From: Candidatus Falkowbacteria bacterium
GTDB lineage: Bacteria > Patescibacteriota > Patescibacteriia > Patescibacteriales > UBA12465
Length of the DNA stretch: 64,000 nucleotides
Direction: 5' to 3'
Assembly (NCBI GenBank): GCA_016432645.1
Contig: CP066698.1
Coordinates: 325,062-389,061 of the forward strand
A program made the translations under genes and the position numbers. Below the pieces are notes generated by a model. It had not been told where the DNA came from. It saw nothing but the letters and a program-made list of their open reading frames with translations, and searched no databases. Position 1 is the stretch's first letter. Each line of letters starts with the position of its first letter. Positions 2,601 through 57,125 of this stretch are shown piece after piece.

Positions 2601-5129
2601 TTATTTTTTTAATAATACGGAAAAATATTTATCAGCATTAATTTTATCAAAAATCTCCCAACCTTTAGACCAAGATAAATTATCGGGATGCTTCCAGAAG
2701 ACTTCTAGCGGCTCAGCGACTTCCAAGCGGCTATGGAACTCGCTGGCAGCTGCTCCCGGCTGTTTTTGCACCAGCAGTGAATATGACCATAAATCTTTAG
2801 AATCAGGATTTAATAAATTATTTAACCTGCTTAAGAAACCGTTATCAGTCTCGGCTTCAAAGAAATTAAATGGCAGCTCATAGCTTAAATTTATTTCCGC
2901 GGTTTGGCCAGGATCAACCATTACCCAGCCGGCAAAAACTGTTTTCCCATCTTCTTGGTATATTTTAGCGCCGCTCGCCGGATCGGTGATGGCCGCCTCC
3001 TCATTGACTAGTAATTTACTATTTTCCCAAGAGCTATCAGGTTCTTCAAAATAAGCGGCGTCAGGAACTTGGAATCCGGAAGCGGATAACAAGCGGCTGC
3101 CTGCAGGCACATAAACCCGAAGCCAATTAACATTCCGCACGCCCGTTAAAATTTCATTTTTTTGGCCGGAATGAATTCTAGTAATTTTAACTTGATTAAT
3201 AATCTTACCGCTAGGGCTAACTTGCGATAACTGTTCAATCTTTTCCACCATTTTCCGATCGGATTTCTGGCCAGCAATATTAGTATTAACTACCATTAAA
3301 TAATCGCGGGGGGCATCTTTTATTTCGCCGCCATAATTACGAGCGCTTACTTCCGATTCTAAAGCCGGATCGGTAAAATAAAACATGATTTGCTTTTCCG
3401 CCAAACTATCCTCAAAGGCGGAAATTATTTTAACCAGACTATCGCGATTTAACTTCTGCGGCAATACTTCCAAAATCTTAGCCATTAAATCGCCGATAAT
3501 TTTTTTAGGCTTATTATCAATATTCTTATCCAAACCCTGTTCCAACGGTACGGAAACCGCAATCGTGGTAGTGGATTCCTTAAAACCGCTAGCTTCTTTA
3601 AAACCAGCCGCCGCTTCGGGATTAGTTTTTTCTAAATTCTTATGTTCAACTACTGTCTGCACGGTTTCCCAAAAATTATTACTATCAATCACTAGCCCGT
3701 AATCTGCTGTCAAATCGATAGGCCCGGTAATCTCTAAAAGCCGTTCAACAACCGTCGGCGTAACACTAATGACCCCATCAACAGTCGGACCGCCGCTCTT
3801 ATCATAAAACCACATCAAATTTTGCGAAGTGCGAACCCAATTAGGCCACCAATTAGCGTCCCAAAAATGCCAGAGGGGGTTAACTAGCCATAAGGGGCGC
3901 GGCGCCTTAACTTTGACGCTCATACCGCCCTCAGTATCATAAGAGCCGCCTCCCGGTACTTCTAAATTTTTAATCTTACCGCCGCTTAAATCCAGAAGCG
4001 CATAACTGCCTAAAAATCCGCCGGAAGCGCGCAGTTCCGAATTATTTTGGAAAATAAGCAAATATCTTTTATCTTTACTCAAACCAAAGACTTCCCTCAT
4101 TTTATCGGCCGCAGAAACAAAATTATCCAAATTAGCGCTTAAACTTTTTGTTTCACTGGCCAGAGTCAAAAATTTAGCTCGATATTCGGCCGGTAAATTA
4201 TCAGGATTTATCTTGCTGATTATCTTGTCTAAATCATTGGCGTCGTTCACTGCTAAGCGTCCATATTTAATAAATCCGTCCAAAGCGCCTAAAAAATTAT
4301 CCGGCTGCTGATTAAACAAGCTATCAGTCGCCAACACTAAATTCTTTCCCAAAGAAGAACTAACTGCTCCGGCCGCTAAAAACCGTTTGCTCTCGGCCGC
4401 TAATTTCATTTTAGGATCTCCGGACAAAGAAGCTAAAAATAATAACGAATCGCTGATAACACTTAAATCTTCCTGGGCCTGCAAAAAACCATTTCCAGCT
4501 TGCGAAAATTCCGTGCTCGCCTCCTGAAAATTCATCGTTGAAACCGAATTGGCAGCGGACACCAAATTATTAAAAGCCATCTTAGAGCTATTCAAAACCT
4601 TATTCTCCAAATTCTTAAAATCTAAAATTTCAAAATAAGCCAAAAGTTTAATCGGAATAATTATAAAAACCAGCACCAAGACAAAAGATAAAATTGAACG
4701 ATACCAAACAACTTTATTTTCTGCCGCCGCTAAGCGTTCTCGGCCGCTGAATTTAAAGCGGGCGTCGAGAATCCGATGCTGTTCCCTAACGGCTGTTTGC
4801 CAAAGATTGTTGGCACTACGGCTCTGAGACTTAAAAGCACGGAACAAACTTTTTTTAAAATTATGCCGGGGGCTAAAAAAATTATTCCACGGCGAACGGA
4901 AACGGAAATGCATTTTAGGAACAGCCGGCAGATTAAAACTGAAAGACGCCTTTGACCTGGGTAATTTATGAGCTAAAGAAAATTTTGGTTTCTTAAATTC
5001 AAATTTCTGCTTCTCGAGCGCGCTAGGATTAGCTGTTGGTTTTAAAGACTGCCTTAAATCCACAACAAAACTAGAGTACCGAGCTCTTTCTAATTCTATC
5101 CGTTTATTTTTATTAGCATCACTAATCAT
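2601..5129 (-). CDS. DUF4012 domain-containing membrane protein
   Basis: 842 aa with one TM helix (ILSFVLVLVFIIIPIKLLAYF). The core YLLIFQNNSELRASGGFLGSYALLDLSGGKI..EVPGGGSYD is the DUF4012 hallmark as I recall it. Its start overlaps the GT4 stop by 4 nt (5126-5129). Confidence 0.7.
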   Translation of the reverse strand: MISDANKNKRIELERARYSSFVVDLRQSLKPTANPSALEKQKFEFKKPKFSLAHKLPRSKASFSFNLPAVPKMHFRFRSPWNNFFSPRHNFKKSLFRAFKSQSRSANNLWQTAVREQHRILDARFKFSGRERLAAAENKVVWYRSILSFVLVLVFIIIPIKLLAYFEILDFKNLENKVLNSSKMAFNNLVSAANSVSTMNFQEASTEFSQAGNGFLQAQEDLSVISDSLLFLASLSGDPKMKLAAESKRFLAAGAVSSSLGKNLVLATDSLFNQQPDNFLGALDGFIKYGRLAVNDANDLDKIISKINPDNLPAEYRAKFLTLASETKSLSANLDNFVSAADKMREVFGLSKDKRYLLIFQNNSELRASGGFLGSYALLDLSGGKIKNLEVPGGGSYDTEGGMSVKVKAPRPLWLVNPLWHFWDANWWPNWVRTSQNLMWFYDKSGGPTVDGVISVTPTVVERLLEITGPIDLTADYGLVIDSNNFWETVQTVVEHKNLEKTNPEAAAGFKEASGFKESTTTIAVSVPLEQGLDKNIDNKPKKIIGDLMAKILEVLPQKLNRDSLVKIISAFEDSLAEKQIMFYFTDPALESEVSARNYGGEIKDAPRDYLMVVNTNIAGQKSDRKMVEKIEQLSQVSPSGKIINQVKITRIHSGQKNEILTGVRNVNWLRVYVPAGSRLLSASGFQVPDAAYFEEPDSSWENSKLLVNEEAAITDPASGAKIYQEDGKTVFAGWVMVDPGQTAEINLSYELPFNFFEAETDNGFLSRLNNLLNPDSKDLWSYSLLVQKQPGAAASEFHSRLEVAEPLEVFWKHPDNLSWSKGWEIFDKINADKYFSVLLKK

Positions 5130-6355: not shown

Positions 6356-7801
6356 TTAAACAAAGGGCAAATTATCCGGGGGCACGGAATTATCCTCTTC
6401 CAGCGGAGACAAAGATTTTTCTGGATAAGAATTGCGCTGTTCTTTATTCTCTAAGAAAATACCGGTCTTCAAAAAACTGTCATCAACGGTAGTCAGCTCG
6501 GAAGCTAGCGGTAATGATGATGGCGCATCCGCTTTTCGCCCCGGTGCTTTTTGAACCAGCGAAGCTTTAACATTGGCCTCCACCGGAAAATGCCATAAAG
6601 TCGCCAGCTCTTCAATATTAAGTATTCCGGCACTGATACCGCGGCCATCCGAACGAACAGTATAGGCGTGGAATATTTTATTCTTTTTTAAATTCAAACG
6701 CGGCACCTGGCGGAAATAAACCGTTTTAGTCATCGTCTTTTTAACATCCGGCTTTAAATTATTTAAATCTAAAGAGGCAAATTGCTTCATATAGCCGACG
6801 ATGCCGTTAGCCACTTTGGCCTTATTCATGACATCTTTTTTGGCGACATAGACCACTCGAATTTTAGCCTCAAAAGACAGCTTTGATAATTTTTCATGAA
6901 CGCCCTCTATCCGCCTTTTTTCTAAAGGAGTTAAATCCATCATAGTTTTTTGCTTTTCCTCCTTCTTACTGGATTCAACATCGCCCCAAATACTATATAA
7001 AATTTCACTGGCATTACCTAAAGCCTCTACCCCCTTCATCGCCAAACCAGGCTTCGCCTTTGCTTTCCTGCCTAAAATTTTATCGATTTCTTTTTCCGCC
7101 TCTTTCACCCAATCAAAACCTATCGGAATTACTAAAAATTGAATCCAAAGCTGTTCGCCCTGGCGCAAAGAACCGCAAAGATCCATTAAAGCGGCCATCG
7201 GGTCTTTAAACTGCGTTTCGCTCGGGCCCATTTGATGCTCAAATTCTTTATAAGTCTTAATCGGATAAACCCAGGAAGAGGCCTGCATAAATTCCGTTCC
7301 CCAGACGTCATATTCTTCATCTGGATAATGCTGCGGGACAGCATCGGTGTAGTCATCGACAACTGAAATTTCCGCGTCCGGATACTGAGAATAGACCGAA
7401 GACTCAATCAAGTTTTTATATTCCGCCGGCGTTCTAATCAAAAACTGGGTATAGCCTTCAAGGCTGACAATTTCATAACTGAATGATTTTTGATATTTCC
7501 CTTCAAACCATTTTTCAAAAAAGTTAATAGAACCATGGGCGCCGGCTAAATAGGTGAACATATTTTCAACCGCTTTTGGCGACTGTTCATTGCCTTTAGG
7601 AATATCGATAGCTAGTAAAACATTTTTGTGGGTCTCTGACCATTTTTCTCGAATCCATAGCAAATAGACCTGGATGGTTCCATAAATAAAAAAGATGCCG
7701 ATTATTATCCAGCCAAAATTGCCCAAAAAAGCCCAAAACATCAGGTCTGGAGGCAGGCTTAAAAATTTGTCGATACCCGCAGTATTAATAACGATATCCA
7801 T
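6356..7801 (-). CDS. Conserved membrane protein of unknown function (N-terminal TM hairpin plus large cytoplasmic domain)
   Basis: 481 aa with TM region FWAFLGNFGWIIIGIFFIYGTIQVYLLW. Motifs LLAIDIPKGNEQSPKAVENMFTYLAGAHG and NIEELATLWHFP resemble, from memory, the non-ATPase N-terminal module of CPR VirD4/TraD-like proteins. No Walker motifs are present. Confidence 0.45.
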   Translation of the reverse strand: MDIVINTAGIDKFLSLPPDLMFWAFLGNFGWIIIGIFFIYGTIQVYLLWIREKWSETHKNVLLAIDIPKGNEQSPKAVENMFTYLAGAHGSINFFEKWFEGKYQKSFSYEIVSLEGYTQFLIRTPAEYKNLIESSVYSQYPDAEISVVDDYTDAVPQHYPDEEYDVWGTEFMQASSWVYPIKTYKEFEHQMGPSETQFKDPMAALMDLCGSLRQGEQLWIQFLVIPIGFDWVKEAEKEIDKILGRKAKAKPGLAMKGVEALGNASEILYSIWGDVESSKKEEKQKTMMDLTPLEKRRIEGVHEKLSKLSFEAKIRVVYVAKKDVMNKAKVANGIVGYMKQFASLDLNNLKPDVKKTMTKTVYFRQVPRLNLKKNKIFHAYTVRSDGRGISAGILNIEELATLWHFPVEANVKASLVQKAPGRKADAPSSLPLASELTTVDDSFLKTGIFLENKEQRNSYPEKSLSPLEEDNSVPPDNLPFV

Positions 7802-9989: not shown

Positions 9990-10018
9990 TTGACAAAAAC
10001 GAAGAAATAGTATATAAT
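9990..10018 (+). promoter_or_regulatory. Consensus sigma-70-type promoter: TTGACA-N17-TATAAT
   Basis: TTGACA at 9990-9995, a 17-nt spacer, and TATAAT at 10013-10018, read directly. It lies about 70 nt upstream of the 10089 ORF. Confidence 0.7.
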
Positions 10019-10088: not shown

Positions 10089-10418
10089 ATGGACAAAGCA
10101 CAAAATGGTTTAAATGGTCATGCCACAAATGGCATGAAAAAGGTTTTAGCAGACGAAATCGCGGACAACGAAGCCGCTCAAGTGATGGATGCCATCAGGG
10201 GACACTTGCCCAAGCTCAAGGGGAAAAGTAAAGAAAAAGTGATTCAGGGGGTCACAAACTTCCTGGAAAACAACCTGAAACTGACGCATGTCAAAGTTAA
10301 CGTTGTGGAATTCGATAGTGAATTCCGAATTTTTCCATCCTTCAGTCTCAACGGCTCAGTTGTAAACAGTCCGGGGAAGATCATTCACCAAAAAGTCGCC
10401 GCCGCCGTCTATAGCTAA
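10089..10418 (+). CDS. Hypothetical small protein (109 aa)
   Basis: The ORF sits between a perfect consensus promoter and a strong terminator. No family is recognised and no SD precedes the ATG. By eye it uses more G/C-ending codons than its neighbours. Confidence 0.5.
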   Translation: MDKAQNGLNGHATNGMKKVLADEIADNEAAQVMDAIRGHLPKLKGKSKEKVIQGVTNFLENNLKLTHVKVNVVEFDSEFRIFPSFSLNGSVVNSPGKIIHQKVAAAVYS

Positions 10419-17659: not shown

Positions 17660-18654
17660 ATAGTTGTTTGATACTCTTTGATAATTTTCTTTAAATCGCT
17701 GAGGCTTTCTACTTTTACCAATTGCTCGCGCAAACGGCTGGCGCCTGGCAGAGATTTAACATACCAGACTAAATGTTTGCGCAACTCAATAATAGCCCCC
17801 GAGCCTTTTATTTTTTCTTGCAGCTGTGCTTGTTTAAACATTAATTTTAAGGTATCCGCTACCGATAAAGATATTTCTTTATTCCGCTTAATTTCTTGGA
17901 ATAGCCAGGGACGCCCTAATATTCCGCGGGCCAAACCGAGGCCATCAGCCTGGCTGGCTTTCATTATTTTTTGAGCGCCAGGCAAATCATTAATCCCGCC
18001 ATTAGCCAAAATTACTCCGGAAAAATATTTACGCGTTTTTTTTATTAATTCGCAATCAGGTTCACCGGCAAATCCCTGATTAACGCTGCGTCCGTGAATC
18101 ATCAGCGCCGCTAGCGGCAAATCGTTAAGCGTTTTTAAAAATTGCAAAGCATCAACATTACCGGACTTAGCTCGAATTTTAATGGATACCGGCAAATTGG
18201 TATTGTTTAAAACCGCCTCAATAACCGCGCGCGCTCGGGGTAAATTTTTCATCAAATCTGAACCAGCTCCCTGCTTGATAACTTTAGAGACCGGACAGCC
18301 AAAATTAATGTCAATTCCATCAGGCCTTATTTCTTTAGTAATAATTCGAGCGGCGGCGGCAAAATGTTCCGGATTGGAGCCAAAAAGCTGGACAACGTAA
18401 TACTTTTCTTTTTGGCGATTAAAATGCAAAAGTTCTAAAGTGGCGCTTTTTATTTTCTGGCGGCTAGATTTATCTTTAGCATAATCGCTATAATACAAAG
18501 CAGTCGCAGAAGCCATCTCGCTATACAAAACATCGGCCCCAAATTTTTTACAAATTTGCCGGAAGGCGGAATCGGTAAAACCGGCCATCGGCGCCAAGGC
18601 TAAAATAGGCTGTTTTTTCTTTTTTAGTTCCAACCAAAAATTTTTCTTAGGCAT
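17656..18654 (-). CDS. dusB: tRNA-dihydrouridine synthase
   Basis: LAPMAGFTDSAFRQICKKFGADVLYSEM, DINFGCP and IHGR motifs. Confidence 0.85.
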   Translation of the reverse strand: MPKKNFWLELKKKKQPILALAPMAGFTDSAFRQICKKFGADVLYSEMASATALYYSDYAKDKSSRQKIKSATLELLHFNRQKEKYYVVQLFGSNPEHFAAAARIITKEIRPDGIDINFGCPVSKVIKQGAGSDLMKNLPRARAVIEAVLNNTNLPVSIKIRAKSGNVDALQFLKTLNDLPLAALMIHGRSVNQGFAGEPDCELIKKTRKYFSGVILANGGINDLPGAQKIMKASQADGLGLARGILGRPWLFQEIKRNKEISLSVADTLKLMFKQAQLQEKIKGSGAIIELRKHLVWYVKSLPGASRLREQLVKVESLSDLKKIIKEYQTTI

Positions 18655-20074: not shown

Positions 20075-20602
20075 TTAAAAATTAACCGGAATTTGAAAAG
20101 AAGCGTCGTTTTCCGGCAAACCCGAAGGATTATCTTTAGAAACGATTAAATAACCGCTAGTCGCCGTGGTGGCGAATTCTAAAGTTGCCTTAAAGGGTAC
20201 TAAATTTTCGGTCATCCAATCGCTCTGCGCTTCAGCATAATGAGCGGCTATTATCTCGCCATCAGCCGCAACCAATTTAACCGGCAAAGTAGCTTCAAAA
20301 AACCAATTTCCCGGCGCTTGGCCCAGAACTTCCAAAGGAGAGCTAACTATCGCTGCCGACAAAGGCTGAAAAATAGAAACTGTCGGCACGGTGCTGGTGG
20401 CAGTCTGTTCCGGAATAACCACGTCAACTTCATTAGTATTGTCGGTAGTGGTGCTAGCCGGCAGCGTTTGTTCAGAAACAACCAACGGCACTAAATTTTC
20501 ATTTTTATTTTTTTCCTTATCAAAAAGCTGGAGCACTCTTAAAGAAATCGCCGAAACTAAAATTATCGCCACAATAATTAATAAAAATTGTTCTTTTTTC
20601 AT
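20075..20602 (-). CDS. Secreted protein with a Gmad2-type Ig-like domain
   Basis: N-terminal signal/TM (LLIIVAIILVSAISL). The C-terminal LEVLGQAPGNWFFEATLPVKLVAADGEIIA..AQSDWMTENLVPFKATLEF resembles the Gmad2 Ig-like domain as I recall it. Confidence 0.5.
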   Translation of the reverse strand: MKKEQFLLIIVAIILVSAISLRVLQLFDKEKNKNENLVPLVVSEQTLPASTTTDNTNEVDVVIPEQTATSTVPTVSIFQPLSAAIVSSPLEVLGQAPGNWFFEATLPVKLVAADGEIIAAHYAEAQSDWMTENLVPFKATLEFATTATSGYLIVSKDNPSGLPENDASFQIPVNF

Positions 20603-20656
20603 ATTATTAAAACCTAAGAATGTTTAATTCTCTTTTATAATTTTAACACATTAGGC

Positions 20657-20688
20657 AAAAAAAGTCCGCATTCTTTGAAAACGCGGAC
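20657..20688 (-). terminator. Intrinsic terminator after the 152-aa gene
   Basis: Stem GTCCGC/GCGGAC (20664-20669 / 20683-20688) is followed on the minus strand by U7 (A-run 20657-20663). Confidence 0.55.
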
Positions 20689-20715
20689 CAGTGGAAGGCA
20701 GTTGCCAAGGAGGTA

Positions 20716-21174
20716 TTAGGCAAAGGCTTCCTGATAGTTTTTGTGGGTGGACTTAAAGATTCCCACAATTTTTTGTGCTTGCGGACGGCGCATGTAGCTC
20801 ACCATTAGCATAAAATCGCTAATGGCATGCAATTCGCCACTACGAGCCGACTTCAACTCTTCCCGACAAACAGGGTCATTACAGCATAATAGACCGCCGT
20901 TAACAGTGCCAAAATCCGGCAGCAAAAAATTCATAACTTTAGCGGCCTTACAATAAGGACAATCCTTAGTTACATCGATTCCCCGAATTTTTTCTAAGAG
21001 ATTTTCTACTGCCAATTGCAGCTGATTAGGAGTTTTTATCGCCGTCTTATTTTTAAAAGACCGCTGATAAAGTCGGGCGATATGGATTGGGTCTTTCAAA
21101 AAAACTTGCTCCACAGAAAAATTTTTATATACCCCACTCTGGAACACATAAGAATATTCTTGCTTCTCGGCCAT
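20716..21174 (-). CDS. Hypothetical Cys-rich protein (putative zinc-ribbon)
   Basis: 152 aa containing CPYC...CCNDPVC. No family is recognised. Confidence 0.5.
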   Translation of the reverse strand: MAEKQEYSYVFQSGVYKNFSVEQVFLKDPIHIARLYQRSFKNKTAIKTPNQLQLAVENLLEKIRGIDVTKDCPYCKAAKVMNFLLPDFGTVNGGLLCCNDPVCREELKSARSGELHAISDFMLMVSYMRRPQAQKIVGIFKSTHKNYQEAFA

Positions 21175-21249
21175 GACTAAAAGTTTTAGTTAGTAATATT
21201 GTTTGAGAACTAATTTATCTTTAACACGAAACTTGAAAAAAATCAAGAG

Positions 21250-21282
21250 AAAATAAAAAAGGGCAGAGTTTAATCTCTACCC
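21250..21282 (-). terminator. Intrinsic terminator ending the ORF-less transcription unit
   Basis: Minus strand reads GGGUAGAG-AUUAAA-CUCUGCCC (8-bp stem with one G-U pair) followed by UUUUUUAUUUU. Confidence 0.7.
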
Positions 21283-21470
21283 TTAAGTTCTTGGTGAGGA
21301 GGCTCATCTCCTAAACCTTAAACGTTTGACGCGGAACCTGAGTTCCAAATGGGGCTGTTTGCCCACCCAGGAAGCCTTATTTCAAGCATATTTTTTGTCT
21401 TTTCTTATCCCGAAAGGCTGATGGCGTCGGCATTCTTGCATTCTTTATGAACACTTATGAACAAAGCACT
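21256..21470 (-). ncRNA. Candidate structured RNA (about 215 nt): independent sRNA or riboswitch-like leader, class unknown
   Basis: It is bounded by a near-consensus promoter and a strong terminator and contains no credible ORF. Nested helices are visible by eye: GACGC/GCGUC closes a junction holding AGCCUU..AAGGCU, GGGC-AAACA-GCCC and GGAAC-UCAG-GUUCC, followed by AGGAG-AUGAGC-CUCCU. The ends are approximate. Confidence 0.4.
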
Positions 21471-21476
21471 GCGGAT

Positions 21477-21505
21477 AGTATACTACAAAGAAAAATATAT
21501 GTCAA
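21477..21505 (-). promoter_or_regulatory. Promoter TTGACA-N17-TATACT driving the ORF-less unit
   Basis: The reverse complement of 21500-21505 is TTGACA and of 21477-21482 is TATACT, with a 17-nt spacer. Confidence 0.65.
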
Positions 21506-21570
21506 TAGTAAAAACGACTTATAAATATAAATGGCTTTTTTGTCAAATATGAGCAAAAATACTAAGTATA

Positions 21571-21579
21571 TGCTATAAT
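21571..21579 (+). promoter_or_regulatory. Extended -10 element TGCTATAAT, 6 nt upstream of the rnhB ATG (predicted leaderless mRNA)
   Basis: TGC is at 21571-21573, TATAAT at 21574-21579 and ATG at 21586. No SD can fit in that space. Confidence 0.5.
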
Positions 21580-21585
21580 TTCCTT

Positions 21586-22206
21586 ATGTTAAACCTAGAA
21601 ACAGAAAATAATTTTTTTAAACTCGGCTACCAGCTGATTGGCGGTGTGGATGAAGCTGGGCGCGGTCCTTTAGCCGGGCCGGTGGTCGCGGCTTGCGTAG
21701 TTATTGGCCCGGATTTTAAAATAGAACCGGGAGATTTAGAACTGGTTGCCGATTCTAAAAAGCTCTCCGCTAAAAAACGAGAGCTTATCTTCAAGGCCAT
21801 CAGAGAGAAGGTGCTAGCTGTTGAAATTGGCGTCGTGAGCCACGAAGACATTGATAAAATAAATATTTTACAAGCCAGTTTTTTGGCAATGAGGCGCGCC
21901 ATCAAAAAATTAAAAATTGAACCAGATTATATTTTGCTGGACGGCGGCTTTAAAATACCTAAATTAACGAAACCACAGACCGCTATTATAAAAGGCGATG
22001 CTAAAGTTTGGGTAATTGCTGCTGCTTCTATTATTGCCAAAGTCAGCCGTGACTGGATAATGACGGAGGCCGATAAAGAATATCCACAATATTTATTCGC
22101 CAAGCATAAAGGCTACGGAACCAAGGAACATTTAGCGATGATAGAAAAATATGGCCCCTGCCCTATTCATCGCCGTTCTTTTGCGCCAATAAAAGATATG
22201 CCTTAA
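21586..22206 (+). CDS. rnhB: Ribonuclease HII
   Basis: IGGVDEAGRGPLAGPVVAA, DSKKLS and KGYGT..H motifs. 206 aa. Confidence 0.9.
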   Translation: MLNLETENNFFKLGYQLIGGVDEAGRGPLAGPVVAACVVIGPDFKIEPGDLELVADSKKLSAKKRELIFKAIREKVLAVEIGVVSHEDIDKINILQASFLAMRRAIKKLKIEPDYILLDGGFKIPKLTKPQTAIIKGDAKVWVIAAASIIAKVSRDWIMTEADKEYPQYLFAKHKGYGTKEHLAMIEKYGPCPIHRRSFAPIKDMP

Positions 22207-22220
22207 TTCTCAATCTAGTA

Positions 22221-22250
22221 AAACAAAAACCGCCTAACCGGCGGTTTTTA
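22221..22250. terminator. Bidirectional intrinsic terminator between rnhB and typA
   Basis: Stem AACCGCC/GGCGGTT (22228-22234 / 22240-22246) has an A-run upstream and a T-run downstream. Confidence 0.65.
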
Positions 22251-22270
22251 TATTTTACTTTTCAAAAAAT

Positions 22271-24055
22271 TTATCTTTTAGCGCGGGCGCGTTCAACTTC
22301 AGTTAGATACTGCTTGCGCATGCGGATGCTTTTGGGTGTTACTTCCAAATATTCATCATCGTTAATAATGCTTAGGCCTCTTTCCAGGCTTAATTCCCAA
22401 GGCGGAGTTAAAGTAATGGCTTCATCGGAACCGGAAGCGCGGACATTGGTGAGCTTTTTGCCCTTAATCGGATTGACAGCCATATCATTACCCTTGGCGA
22501 CATTGCCAAGCACCATGCCTTCATAAACTTCAGTATTGGGCTGGATATATAAAACGCCGCGATCTTGAAGATTCCATAAAGAATAAGCAAGCGCCTTGCC
22601 GGTAACCATGGAAACCATTGAACCAAGAGCACTTCTTTCAATCTCGCCCGCCCAAGGACGGAAACCTAAAAAATGAGTGCATAAAATTCCTTCCCCGCGC
22701 GTATCAACCACAAATTCTTCACGATAACCGAGTAAGCCGCGAGTTGGAATTGCAAAAATAATCCGAGTCTGGCCATTATGAGTTTTCATATCAGTTAACT
22801 GGCCTTTGCGCTTAGACATTTTTTCAATAATCACGCCGGAAGAAGTCTCGGGAATATCGATACTCGCTTCTTCATAAGGCTCCATTTGAATCCCATTTTC
22901 TTCTTTAATAATTACTTGGGGCTGGGAAACCTGAAGCTCAAAACCTTCCCGGCGCATATTTTCCAATAAGACGGCGATATGTAATTCACCGCGGCCGTAA
23001 ACTTTATAGGAATTGGTGTCAGAGAAATCAATTTTTAAACCGACATTAACTTCCAATTCTTTTTCCAAGCGCTCCTTAATTTGTCGATTAGTGACAAACT
23101 TCCCTTCGCGTCCGGCAAATGGCGAATTATTAACTAGAAAACTTAAGCAGATAGTCGGCTCATCAATATTGATTGCCGGCAACGGCTCTTGGCTGGCGCT
23201 GGCGCAAATCGTTTCGCCAATATAAATATCTGATAAGCCGGCGATTAAAACAATATCGCCCACGGAGGCCTCTGTTGATTCCTGTCTAGCCAGGCCTTTA
23301 AAAGTAAAGAGTTTAGTAACCTTCCCGGAGCGATCTTGATTGGCCAAATTCTTAACCACCACTTGTTGGCCGCTCTGAATCTTGCCTTGATAAATTCTGG
23401 CAATCGCGCAGCGTCCTAAAAAATTATCATAAGCTAAATTAAAAGGCTGGGCGAGTAAAGGTTCGGCTAAAGCCTCAGCACTGGAAGCCGGGACGACATG
23501 GTCTAAAATAGTATCTAAAAGCGGGTTAAGATTATCAACTAATTCATCAGCCTTGAGCCCGGCTAAACCGCCCTTGCTGATGGTATAAACCACTGGGAAA
23601 TTAAGCTGTTCATCATTGGCTCCCAAATCTAAAAATAATTCATAAACCATTTCCGCTACTTCCGCGGGACGGGCGGCTGGTTTATCAACCTTATTAATAA
23701 CCACAATCGGCTTCAAGCCCAACTCCAAAGATTTTTTTAAAACAAATTTAGTCTGCGGCATCGGCCCCTCCTGCGCATCAACAACTAATAAAACAGAGTC
23801 AATGGAACGCAAAACCCGCTCCACTTCGGAACTAAAGTCGGCATGCCCCGGAGTATCAACGATATTTATCTTGGAATCCTTATAAAAAAGACTGGCATTT
23901 TTAGCGTAAATAGTGATGCCGCGTTCCTGCTCAATTGAGTTGCTGTCCATAGTGGTATTGTCAGTAACCATCCCGGTCTGGCGCAGAAGCGAATCGGTTA
24001 AAGTTGTTTTGCCGTGATCAACGTGGGCAATAATCGCAATATTTCTAATATCCAT
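22271..24055 (-). CDS. typA: Translational GTPase TypA/BipA
   Basis: NIAIIAHVDHGKTTL, DTPGHADF and NKVD G-motifs. 594 aa with BipA-type C-terminal architecture. Confidence 0.95.
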   Translation of the reverse strand: MDIRNIAIIAHVDHGKTTLTDSLLRQTGMVTDNTTMDSNSIEQERGITIYAKNASLFYKDSKINIVDTPGHADFSSEVERVLRSIDSVLLVVDAQEGPMPQTKFVLKKSLELGLKPIVVINKVDKPAARPAEVAEMVYELFLDLGANDEQLNFPVVYTISKGGLAGLKADELVDNLNPLLDTILDHVVPASSAEALAEPLLAQPFNLAYDNFLGRCAIARIYQGKIQSGQQVVVKNLANQDRSGKVTKLFTFKGLARQESTEASVGDIVLIAGLSDIYIGETICASASQEPLPAINIDEPTICLSFLVNNSPFAGREGKFVTNRQIKERLEKELEVNVGLKIDFSDTNSYKVYGRGELHIAVLLENMRREGFELQVSQPQVIIKEENGIQMEPYEEASIDIPETSSGVIIEKMSKRKGQLTDMKTHNGQTRIIFAIPTRGLLGYREEFVVDTRGEGILCTHFLGFRPWAGEIERSALGSMVSMVTGKALAYSLWNLQDRGVLYIQPNTEVYEGMVLGNVAKGNDMAVNPIKGKKLTNVRASGSDEAITLTPPWELSLERGLSIINDDEYLEVTPKSIRMRKQYLTEVERARAKR

Positions 24056-33461: not shown

Positions 33462-34043
33462 TTAAAGCTTATGGTTGGCGTTTAAAAATTTCTTTAATTC
33501 TGCTTTGGCCTTATTCATTCTGGAGGCCACGGTGCCTAAAGGCTTTTTAATAATATCCGATATTTCCTGATAATCTTTTTCTTCTAAATATTTTAAAATA
33601 ATCATTTCTTGATATTTAAGATCGATTTGGGAAAGGGCTTGGCTAATTTCCTGTTTTAATTCTTGCCGCGCCACCTCTTCAAACAAATCAGTCTCCCCGG
33701 CCAGTTCTCTAATTTGGCTTTCTTGAATATCAATATCCAGAAGCTGAGGCCGCGCTTTCCGCTTACGATAATTATCAATGACCTCGTTATGTGCTATTCG
33801 ATAAATCCAGGATGAGAACTTTAAACTATCATCAAAATCATTAAGATTAAGATAAACTTTAATAAAAATATTTTGCAACATATCCTCGGCTTCTTCTAGG
33901 CCGACATTGGATATGCGCCGGATATATCGAAGTAATTTATCTTTGTAGCGATTAACTAAATATGAAAAAACACCCTGGTTTTCCAGAACAATCGCAACTA
34001 ATTCTTCGTCGGTTTTCTTCTCAAAATCAATGTTTTCTATCAT
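33462..34043 (-). CDS. ECF-type RNA polymerase sigma factor (sigma-70 family, group 4)
   Basis: Region 2 (FSSWIYRIAHNEVIDNYRKRK) and region 4 (YQEISDIIKKPLGTVASRMNKAKAELKK). 193 aa. Confidence 0.85.
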   Translation of the reverse strand: MIENIDFEKKTDEELVAIVLENQGVFSYLVNRYKDKLLRYIRRISNVGLEEAEDMLQNIFIKVYLNLNDFDDSLKFSSWIYRIAHNEVIDNYRKRKARPQLLDIDIQESQIRELAGETDLFEEVARQELKQEISQALSQIDLKYQEMIILKYLEEKDYQEISDIIKKPLGTVASRMNKAKAELKKFLNANHKL

Positions 34044-57054: not shown

Positions 57055-57125
57055 CACGGGATGTAGGTGCCGCCCCTACGCCGTCAGTTTTGGAGACTGA
57101 CATACTACTGTTATACTAATCCCGC
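57055..57125 (-). other. tRNA-like cloverleaf with a tRNA-Trp(CCA)-type anticodon arm but non-canonical D and T loops (degenerate tRNA, pseudo-tRNA or tRNA mimic)
   Basis: Minus strand reads GCGGGAU-UA-GUAU-AACAGUA-GUAU-G-UCAGU-CUCCAAA-ACUGA-CGGC-GUAGG-GGCGGCA-CCUAC-AUCCCGU-G. It has a 7-bp acceptor stem (G1-U72) and 5-bp anticodon and T stems. The T loop GGCGGCA lacks UUC and the D loop lacks GG. The tRNA-Tyr in this same window has the canonical GGTTCGAATCC. Confidence 0.35.

Follow-up and report, generated by a model that had tools for sequence, protein, structure and literature searches.

A covariation-supported small RNA, most likely an independent transcript, in a narrow clade of Candidatus Falkowbacteria

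Introduction

In enterobacteria, trans-acting small RNAs (sRNAs) such as RybB, OmrA/B, and MicC base-pair through a conserved 5′ seed and end at an intrinsic terminator. Here, we describe a putative sRNA gene on the minus strand of a 64-kb stretch of a metagenome-assembled genome of Candidatus Falkowbacteria (contig CP066698.1; hereafter, the window), a lineage of ultra-small bacteria within the Candidate Phyla Radiation (CPR; Patescibacteria). The gene lies between rnhB and an operon headed by a gene for a Cys-rich protein of 152 amino acids (152-aa gene), and its sequence points to a real, selected, structured small RNA that is most likely an independent transcript. Like the enterobacterial sRNAs, it combines a promoter of its own with a U-tailed, Rho-independent terminator and a fast-evolving body, and its 5′ end is both the most conserved part and largely unpaired by prediction, with a proposed pairing across a start codon. 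Unlike them, the Falkowbacteria RNA is far more structured, with a covarying four-way junction plus a hairpin, comes from a CPR lineage, and has a candidate target that was singled out by statistics only.

Other described systems share parts of this architecture. Like the SAM-I and cobalamin riboswitch leaders, whose aptamers are four-way junctions, the RNA contains a multi-helix junction with conserved nucleotides in its loops and at the junction itself, then a terminator, with an operon downstream on the same strand. However, it has no Rfam match and no antiterminator that we could see, a predicted promoter separates its terminator from the gene, its junction is lost in relatives that keep the operon, and its phylogenetic range is very narrow. 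Type III toxin–antitoxin loci (toxIN, cptIN, and tenpIN) consist of a promoter, an RNA of ∼34- to 36-nucleotide (nt) tandem repeats, an intrinsic terminator, and a toxin gene. The order of promoter, non-coding RNA, terminator, and a gene of ∼150 aa is the same here, whereas repeats of ∼36 nt are absent, the 152-aa protein has no Pfam family and no significant PADLOC match, and the locus belongs to a conserved operon on the chromosome, which includes cysS and has a second promoter. The RNA also resembles tRNA in having a four-way junction whose last hairpin directly adjoins the closing stem on its 3′ strand, and a tRNA occupies its slot in one relative; in contrast to tRNA, it has no D- or T-loop signatures, and its helix P2 is a long hairpin with a 35-nt loop.

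CPR bacteria have genomes of ∼1 Mb with few recognizable regulators and cannot be grown alone, and our literature search found no description of small or regulatory RNAs from CPR/Patescibacteria. The present locus offers an RNA family that is supported by covariation and whose promoter, terminator, and structure are defined, together with a concrete seed–target hypothesis and a promoter architecture that recurs across lineages. Given its narrow range, it would be a useful new family rather than a surprise, and its function can only be guessed at.

An RNA unit with a conserved promoter, terminator, and covarying fold

The unit comprises the following elements, all on the minus strand, in which promoters and helices are numbered separately.

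21477–21505, minus strand: promoter P1 of the RNA, with TTGACA (21505–21500), a 17-bp spacer, and TATACT (21482–21477)
21457–21467, minus strand: 5′ motif GCUUUGUUCAU, proposed as the seed and conserved more widely than any other element, which extends to GUGCUUUGUUCAU (21469–21457) in the window genome
21429–21456, minus strand: linker, in which part of the motif is repeated by tandem duplications specific to the window (UGUUCAUAAG twice and AAGAAUGC twice)
21293–21428, minus strand: structured core, matched by covariance model R1 at 157.5 bits, single copy in the window
21428–21424 with 21332–21328, minus strand: helix P1, GACGC/GCGUC, supported by covariation
21419–21414 with 21378–21373, minus strand: helix P2, AGCCUU/AAGGCU, closing a purine-rich 35-nt loop
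21368–21362 with 21353–21347, minus strand: helix P3, GGGUGGG/CCCAUUU, with the 8-nt loop CAAACAGC
21346–21342 with 21337–21333, minus strand: helix P4, GGAAC/GUUCC
21317–21315 and 21312–21308 with 21301–21297 and 21295–21293, minus strand: hairpin P5, AGGAG/CUCCU, with the loop AUGAGC (21307–21302)
21255–21284, minus strand: intrinsic terminator T1, with a 10-bp stem, a 6-nt loop, and a U-run

The original prediction had proposed a promoter TTGACA-N17-TATACT at 21505–21477, a strong terminator hairpin with a U-run, and no open reading frame (ORF) between them, and each of these proposals was confirmed. Together, the two signals delimit an RNA of about 215 nt. Promoter P1, of the sigma-70 type, matches 11 of 12 consensus positions, was the best site within 20500–22300 in a consensus scan, and has a sequence that occurs once in the window; the predicted transcription start lies at about 21472–21469. 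All 13 lineages with upstream sequence carry this promoter as TTGACA or TTGATA, a spacer of exactly 17 bp, and TATAAT, TATACT, or TATATT. The terminator at 21284–21255 consists of AAGGGUAGAG-AUUAAA-CUCUGCCCUU (21284–21259) followed by UUUUUUAUUUU. Its mean pair probability in the folded ensemble is 0.97 in the window and 0.91 to 0.98 across 12 orthologues, and the letters of its stem vary by lineage with pairing always retained. The one AUG frame of note, of 19 codons (MPTPSAFRDKKRQKICLK), exists but is not conserved, as it stops at codon 5 in the orthologous loci L009 and L013, and none of the AUG frames on either strand is conserved in the 12 orthologues.

The covariance model R1 was built from four sequences with a hand-derived structure. 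In the R1 alignment, 97.6% of the cells hold standard pairs versus 82.3% in shuffles, and compensatory changes on both sides were observed in 22 of the 31 pairs, a value that none of 500 shuffles reached. As a control, sliding the partner strand by 1 to 3 columns reduced pairing to 40 to 56%. The same picture emerged from segmentation by hand. Helix P1 changes from GACGC/GCGUC to GACGU/GCGUC and, in L007, to UUGU/ACAA; P2 from AGCCUU/AAGGCU to GGUGGC/GCCUCC in L019 and ACAUGC/GCAUGU in L007; P3 from GGGUGGG/CCCAUUU to GAGCCGG/CCGGUUU, UAACGGG/CUCGUUG, and GAGUGG/CCACUC; P4 from GGAAC/GUUCC to GAAAUC/GAUUUC, GGGAUUUC/GAAAUUCC, and UCGA/UCGA; and P5 from AGGAG/CUCCU to GGGAG/CUCCC, AAGG/CCUU, and GCAAGGGAG/CUCUCUUGC. 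Reading of the minus strand, and of this strand only, gives G·U pairs, which fixes the orientation of the RNA. Folding of the single sequence gave an unremarkable z of −1.8, and the case for a real structure thus rests on the comparative data. With these data in hand, we have little doubt that the unit encodes a functional structured non-coding RNA.

Covariation supports four helices of the original prediction, each of which is present: GACGC/GCGUC, AGCCUU/AAGGCU, GGAAC/GUUCC, and AGGAG/CUCCU. The hairpin drawn as GGGC-AAACA-GCCC also exists, but its register was one base out; GGGUGGG/CCCAUUU is supported instead, and L015, L002, and L019 can pair only in this register. The loop of P3 (L3) is CAAACAGC, CACACAGA, or GAUACAGA, and L025 has CGAUUACAGAA on a different stem. 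The loop of P5 (L5) is AUGAGC in nine sequences and AUUAA in L019. RNAalifold suggested a pseudoknot between GUUCAU of the 5′ motif and AUGAGC of L5, with both partners invariant in the nine sequences. L019, with its AUUAA loop, retains the 5′ motif unchanged, and the partner given by RNAduplex differs per lineage; the data neither support nor oppose this pseudoknot, and we do not claim it.

Distribution and comparison with known RNA families

Orthologues were collected by tracing homologues of the 152-aa protein (12 clusters, 55–100% identity) to their contigs, by scanning metagenome and genome collections for further loci, and by following RNase HII homologues, which added three more lineages. 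Every orthologous locus is syntenic. About 12 distinct orthologous RNAs of the window type or near it were found in Falkowbacteria, and the set consists of the window, L021, L008, L015, L001, L013, L009, L002, L004/L005/L022, L019, and L007; L011, L026, and L025 carry divergent versions. R1 detects one copy in the 64-kb window and one per relative, with no paralogues, and its score drops to 54.8 bits in L002, 41.3 in L019, 22.5 in L007, and only 9.5 in L025; it fails on L011 and L026. The latter two keep the promoter, the 5′ motif, and the terminator, with different hairpins and no junction. L025 has P2-like and P3-like hairpins and is without helices P1 and P4 and the 5′ motif. A large purine-rich loop on a long hairpin is the sole feature of the body found in all versions, including L007, L011, L025, and L026.

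The RNA is 64 to 72% identical between genomes whose rnhB four-fold sites are 34 to 46% identical, which is near saturation. Since the identity of the RNA is far above that of these sites, the promoter, the 5′ motif, and the core are under constraint. Judged by the loci collected, the RNA gene is confined to a single narrow clade within Candidatus Falkowbacteria. No viral origin emerged from two scans of viral contigs, together with R1 applied to 80 chance 15-mer matches. In the more distant L028, a tRNA-Leu(CAG) gene with its own promoter (3312–3397, minus strand) takes the slot of the sRNA, flanked by rnhB and a homologous Cys-rich gene of 164 aa.

Rfam 15 (4227 models) at the gathering threshold returned only two tRNAs elsewhere in the window. 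Over 21150–21600 at E ≤ 10, the matches were noise only (best 12–24 bits versus thresholds of 60–111), and at E ≤ 1 the orthologous region of eight relatives gave no match. The RNA had been assigned to an unknown class pending an Rfam search, and the lack of a match in the window and the eight relatives agrees with this assignment; as far as these comparisons reach, it is a previously undescribed RNA family. Neither ARAGORN nor the Rfam tRNA model (RF00005), even at E ≤ 10, matched the core, and Tandem Repeats Finder reported only an 8-nt unit in two copies and a 10-nt unit in 1.9 copies, with no array.

Two known classes were considered and rejected. A T-box leader has a stem I with a specifier loop and carries the T-box sequence in an antiterminator bulge. 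The Rfam T-box model was tested because cysS lies downstream and gave no match at E ≤ 10; moreover, GGGUGGG covaries as an ordinary stem (to GAGCCGG and TAACGGG). 6S RNA is a long, irregular rod in which the 5′ and 3′ ends pair and the center opens into a large bubble. The present RNA folds into a branched junction with a free 5′ end and a 3′ terminator, and it has no match to the Rfam 6S model.

Relationship to the downstream operon

A second promoter is predicted between the RNA and the 152-aa gene, directly after the U-run.

21211–21246, minus strand: promoter P2 of the 152-aa operon, with TTGATT (21246–21241), 14 nt, TGT (21226–21224), and TAAAGA (21223–21218)

Six nucleotides after TAAAGA, AGUUCU is located at the predicted +1 (21211). 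In all 14 lineages, the −35 element (TTGATT, TTGACT, TTTACT, or TTGTTT) is separated by an invariable 14 nt from TGn and TAnnnn, a fixed spacing of 17 bp between the −35 and −10 hexamers, and AGTWCY follows after an invariable 6 nt; the letters of the spacer vary. Fixed spacing with a variable spacer is the signature of a real extended −10 promoter, and P2 is predicted to be one. The 5′ untranslated region (UTR) predicted for the operon from P2 would be about 19 to 45 nt long and exclude the RNA. No antiterminator competing with T1 was seen by inspection of the 12 orthologues, in which a ligand-stabilized alternative would lie beyond thermodynamic folding. Moreover, the junction is absent or remodeled in L011, L026, and L025, though these lineages keep the 152-aa operon.

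The original prediction had allowed for either an independent sRNA or a terminator-type riboswitch or attenuator leader. An independent sRNA is favored over a riboswitch because promoter P2 is conserved, no fold was seen to compete with the terminator, and some lineages retain the operon but not the junction; the evidence thus leans toward the first option and leaves the leader less favored. A separate transcription unit appears probable from these predictions.

The 5′ motif and a candidate trans target

The motif GCUUUGUUCAU is found in 11 of the 14 lineages, with a near variant in L008, an altered form in L007, and none in L025. It is the only segment of the RNA common to the window type, L019, L011, and L026, the last two of which have a GU insertion. 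The complete motif occurs once in the window, where it is partly duplicated, and L004 and L005 have three copies; the linker insertion of ∼16 to 20 nt is missing from relatives such as L021. The motif starts at varying distances (6–21 nt) from the −10 element and therefore does not belong to the promoter as a fixed part. It may resemble boxA antitermination elements, a likeness to which we give little weight.

A stretch complementary to the motif was found at the start of another gene in the window.

10089–10101, plus strand: AUGGACAAAGCAC as candidate trans target, made up of the start codon plus 10 further nt of a conserved gene for a 109-aa protein (109-aa gene; 10089–10418)

GUGCUUUGUUCAU can form a 13-nt contiguous complement, including one G·U pair, with AUGGACAAAGCAC across the start codon, with a duplex energy of −19.6 kcal/mol. 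This start was the best among the translation-start regions of 56 putative genes in the window and was equalled, at any of these regions, by 5 of 300 shuffles of the sRNA 5′ region (P ∼ 0.017). With homologues in 11 clusters, the 109-aa ORF is a real gene, restricted to the clade; a perfect TTGACA-17-TATAAT promoter precedes it at 9990–10018 (plus strand), and no Shine–Dalgarno sequence is visible. Conservation of the target at the DNA level was compared in two lineages. In the lineage of L021, whose 109-aa protein is 65% identical, the start AUGAACGAAGCA forms 12 bp with the same seed, with the wobble moved. The N termini of the 11 homologues read M-[DN]-[KER]-[AVE], and nearly all of their codons are compatible with pairing. 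Taken on its own, the 109-aa gene is a rather doubtful target, albeit the one to which the pairing points.

The pattern ATGRAYRARGC occurs five times in the window versus 0.59 expected. We rejected this enrichment as evidence of multiple targets, as two occurrences are internal MNKA codons, one is antisense to the RNA, and one lies outside genes. The internal in-frame AUGAAUAAGGC (MNKA) sites at 6819–6829 and 33508–33518 (both minus strand), which could pair with the motif, lie inside a 481-aa gene and a sigma-70-family gene and are probably a coincidence of coding bias. Separately, the L5 loop AUGAGC resembles the target site in the 109-aa gene and can pair with GUUCAU. The 5′ UTRs of the 109-aa gene and the 152-aa gene share an element AGUUCU..AAACAA, located 39 nt before the ATG in the former and 37 nt before it in the latter (21199–21211, minus strand). 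A third match to this pattern (18626–18637, AGTTCCAACCAA) is looser and has no ATG downstream, and the AAACAA part is not kept in L029.

Proposed function and alternatives

We propose an independent sRNA gene with its own promoter P1 and terminator T1, next to a downstream operon that would be transcribed from P2. The RNA would act in trans as a base-pairing regulator, in which the largely unpaired GCUUUGUUCAU would block initiation by occupying the start codon together with codons 2 to 4 (AUG-RAY-RAR-GC). Its targets would be mRNAs without a Shine–Dalgarno sequence, among which the 109-aa gene at 10089 is the only candidate in the window, and the structured body and the terminator hairpin may give stability or bind a protein partner. 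As a whole, this explanation of a separate clade-specific sRNA gene that pairs in trans has, in our judgment, even odds of being correct, and the trans-acting mechanism by itself is offered more tentatively, at somewhat less than that.

Several points weigh against this proposal. It rests on predictions derived from sequence rather than on expression, and all loci come from close relatives, such that linkage with the neighboring genes is uninformative about function. The covariation alignment was fitted to the structure of R1, although the hand table agrees with it. The target match was found post hoc, at P ∼ 0.02, by scanning 64 kb of a genome of ∼1 Mb (6.5% of the genome), and the target site ranks 45th of 25,569 windows by energy. 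Accessibility of the motif is middling (mean unpaired probability about 0.2–0.72), L025 is without the motif, and that of L007 is altered. Since the seed is invariant and its U/G content tolerates any transition in the target, true covariation between sRNA and mRNA cannot be shown. In addition, base pairing would not require an sRNA as elaborate as this four-way junction with its conserved loops (AnAYAG in L3 and AUGAGC in L5), and the excess hints at a partner, either a ligand or a protein. A version that takes this up, in which the start-codon seed would be gated by the four-way junction as a new sensor or protein-binding domain, possibly via the L5 mimic, strikes us as improbable; if true, it would make the RNA the first defined riboregulator of a CPR/Patescibacteria bacterium.

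The conserved loops could also be read without any seed. As an RNA that binds proteins or serves as a scaffold, be it a sequestering sRNA or part of a small ribonucleoprotein, the molecule would use the junction, the purine-rich P2 loop, and L3 and L5 as recognition sites, and the 5′ motif would be a binding or processing site. The purine-rich loop on a long hairpin in every version, loops that stay invariant over covarying stems, the multiplied motif of some lineages, and a near-consensus promoter that suggests an abundant RNA are all consistent with such a role. However, no partner protein can be named and the body of the RNA turns over quickly between lineages, and we regard this role as unlikely. 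We assign the same low probability to a cis-acting leader, in which the junction would bind a metabolite or a protein, possibly the zinc-ribbon protein of 152 aa itself, and thereby set read-through from P1 past T1 into the operon, with P2 providing basal expression only. In every lineage, the RNA is oriented with the operon and lies ∼75 nt upstream of it, conserved loop and junction nucleotides over covarying stems are the usual look of an aptamer, and L025 retains the P3 loop GAUUACAGAA despite changes elsewhere in its RNA. Against these features stand the promoter conserved between T1 and the 152-aa gene in 14 of 14 lineages, a terminator that pairs with a probability of 0.91 to 0.98 and has no antiterminator by inspection, and the junction that is gone in L011 and L026 and remodeled in L025 with the operon unchanged. 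There is no match to a riboswitch or T-box model in Rfam, and the distribution is very narrow, unlike that of metabolite riboswitches; metabolite aptamers seldom turn over in this way within one family-level clade.

Two further explanations fall far behind our proposal of a trans-acting sRNA. An antisense regulator of the 152-aa mRNA would pair its 5′ region (CAUAAGAAUGC, GCUUUG, and UCCGCAG) with codons 6 to 22. Complementarity is visible by eye in the window, including AUUCUUAUG (9 nt), L019 has an apparently compensated CAUACGG/CCGUAUG, and shuffling gave z of −3.2 to −4.8 in L004, L015, and L021. However, most other z values are only −0.8 to −1.7, and that of L007 is positive. The site ranks anywhere between 6th and 1396th among local windows, and cognate pairs (mean −16.3 kcal/mol) are no better than non-cognate ones (−14.8 kcal/mol), with scattered cognate ranks. 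As there is neither cognate specificity nor extra synonymous constraint in codons 1 to 20 of the 152-aa gene, and the ranks are poor, we rejected this pairing and consider it very improbable. Least probable of all, by a slight measure, is a degenerate known element, either a remnant derived from tRNA or a type III antitoxin RNA before a toxin gene. The junction topology is cloverleaf-like, tRNA-Leu(CAG) fills the slot in L028, and toxIN loci have a similar succession of promoter, RNA, terminator, and ∼150-aa gene. On the other side, the core is matched neither by ARAGORN nor by the Rfam tRNA model, the only duplications are of 8 and 10 nt, the 152-aa protein has no significant match in Pfam, NCBIfam, or PADLOC, and the locus, which is chromosomal and kept in synteny, belongs to an operon with cysS and has a second promoter.

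Neighboring genes and additional features

The genes around the RNA are arranged as follows.

Gene order at the locus: bipA, rnhB (21586–22206, plus strand), an intergenic region of 411 bp, and the minus-strand operon
20716–21174, minus strand: Cys-rich 152-aa gene with its ATG at 21174, which heads the operon 152aa-Gmad2-cysS-dus

The ATG of the 152-aa gene lies about 75 to 80 nt after the end of the U-run, and the RNA is on the same strand as the operon, ∼75 nt upstream, in every lineage traced. Searches of the 152-aa protein against Pfam, NCBIfam, PHROGs, and PADLOC gave no significant match (best PADLOC E = 0.025, an unrelated model), and its AlphaFold model has a pLDDT (predicted local distance difference test) score of 46, which is too poor for fold comparison. 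By profile search, the family comprises 68 clusters at 50% identity, and its remotest members have Pfam ExoX-like_C repeats or a Zn_ribbon_16 domain. The protein therefore looks like an ExoX-like_C-type N-terminal motif joined to a zinc ribbon. The 152-aa gene is the genomic context of the RNA and is not shown to be its functional partner. At its 3′ end (codons 121–152; 20716–20810, minus strand), synonymous sites are unusually conserved, with a modal third-base fraction of 0.82 to 0.92 versus ∼0.72 elsewhere in the gene and 0.74 in rnhB. This end may contain an embedded signal for the Gmad2 gene or a terminator at 20689–20663.

On the other side of the RNA, rnhB is preceded by an extended −10 element (21571–21588, plus strand), in which TGC-TATAAT is followed by 6 nt and the ATG at 21586, and the gene looks leaderless. 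This start arrangement is common to all relatives, for example TGATATAAT-AACTAC-ATG in L007. A conserved block, UUUUUGCUCAUAUUUGACAAAAAAG, lies upstream of promoter P1 (21518–21560, minus strand) in the window-type relatives only. It includes a second TTGACA (21546–21541) with TATAAG 17 nt later, as well as GCUCAU, which is complementary to the L5 loop, and it may be a tandem promoter or part of a divergent control region of rnhB. Elsewhere in the window, 57055–57125 (minus strand) scores 46 bits with the Rfam tRNA model, has no ARAGORN call, and carries an atypical T-arm (GGGGCGGCACC); it may be an unusual tRNA or a pseudogene.

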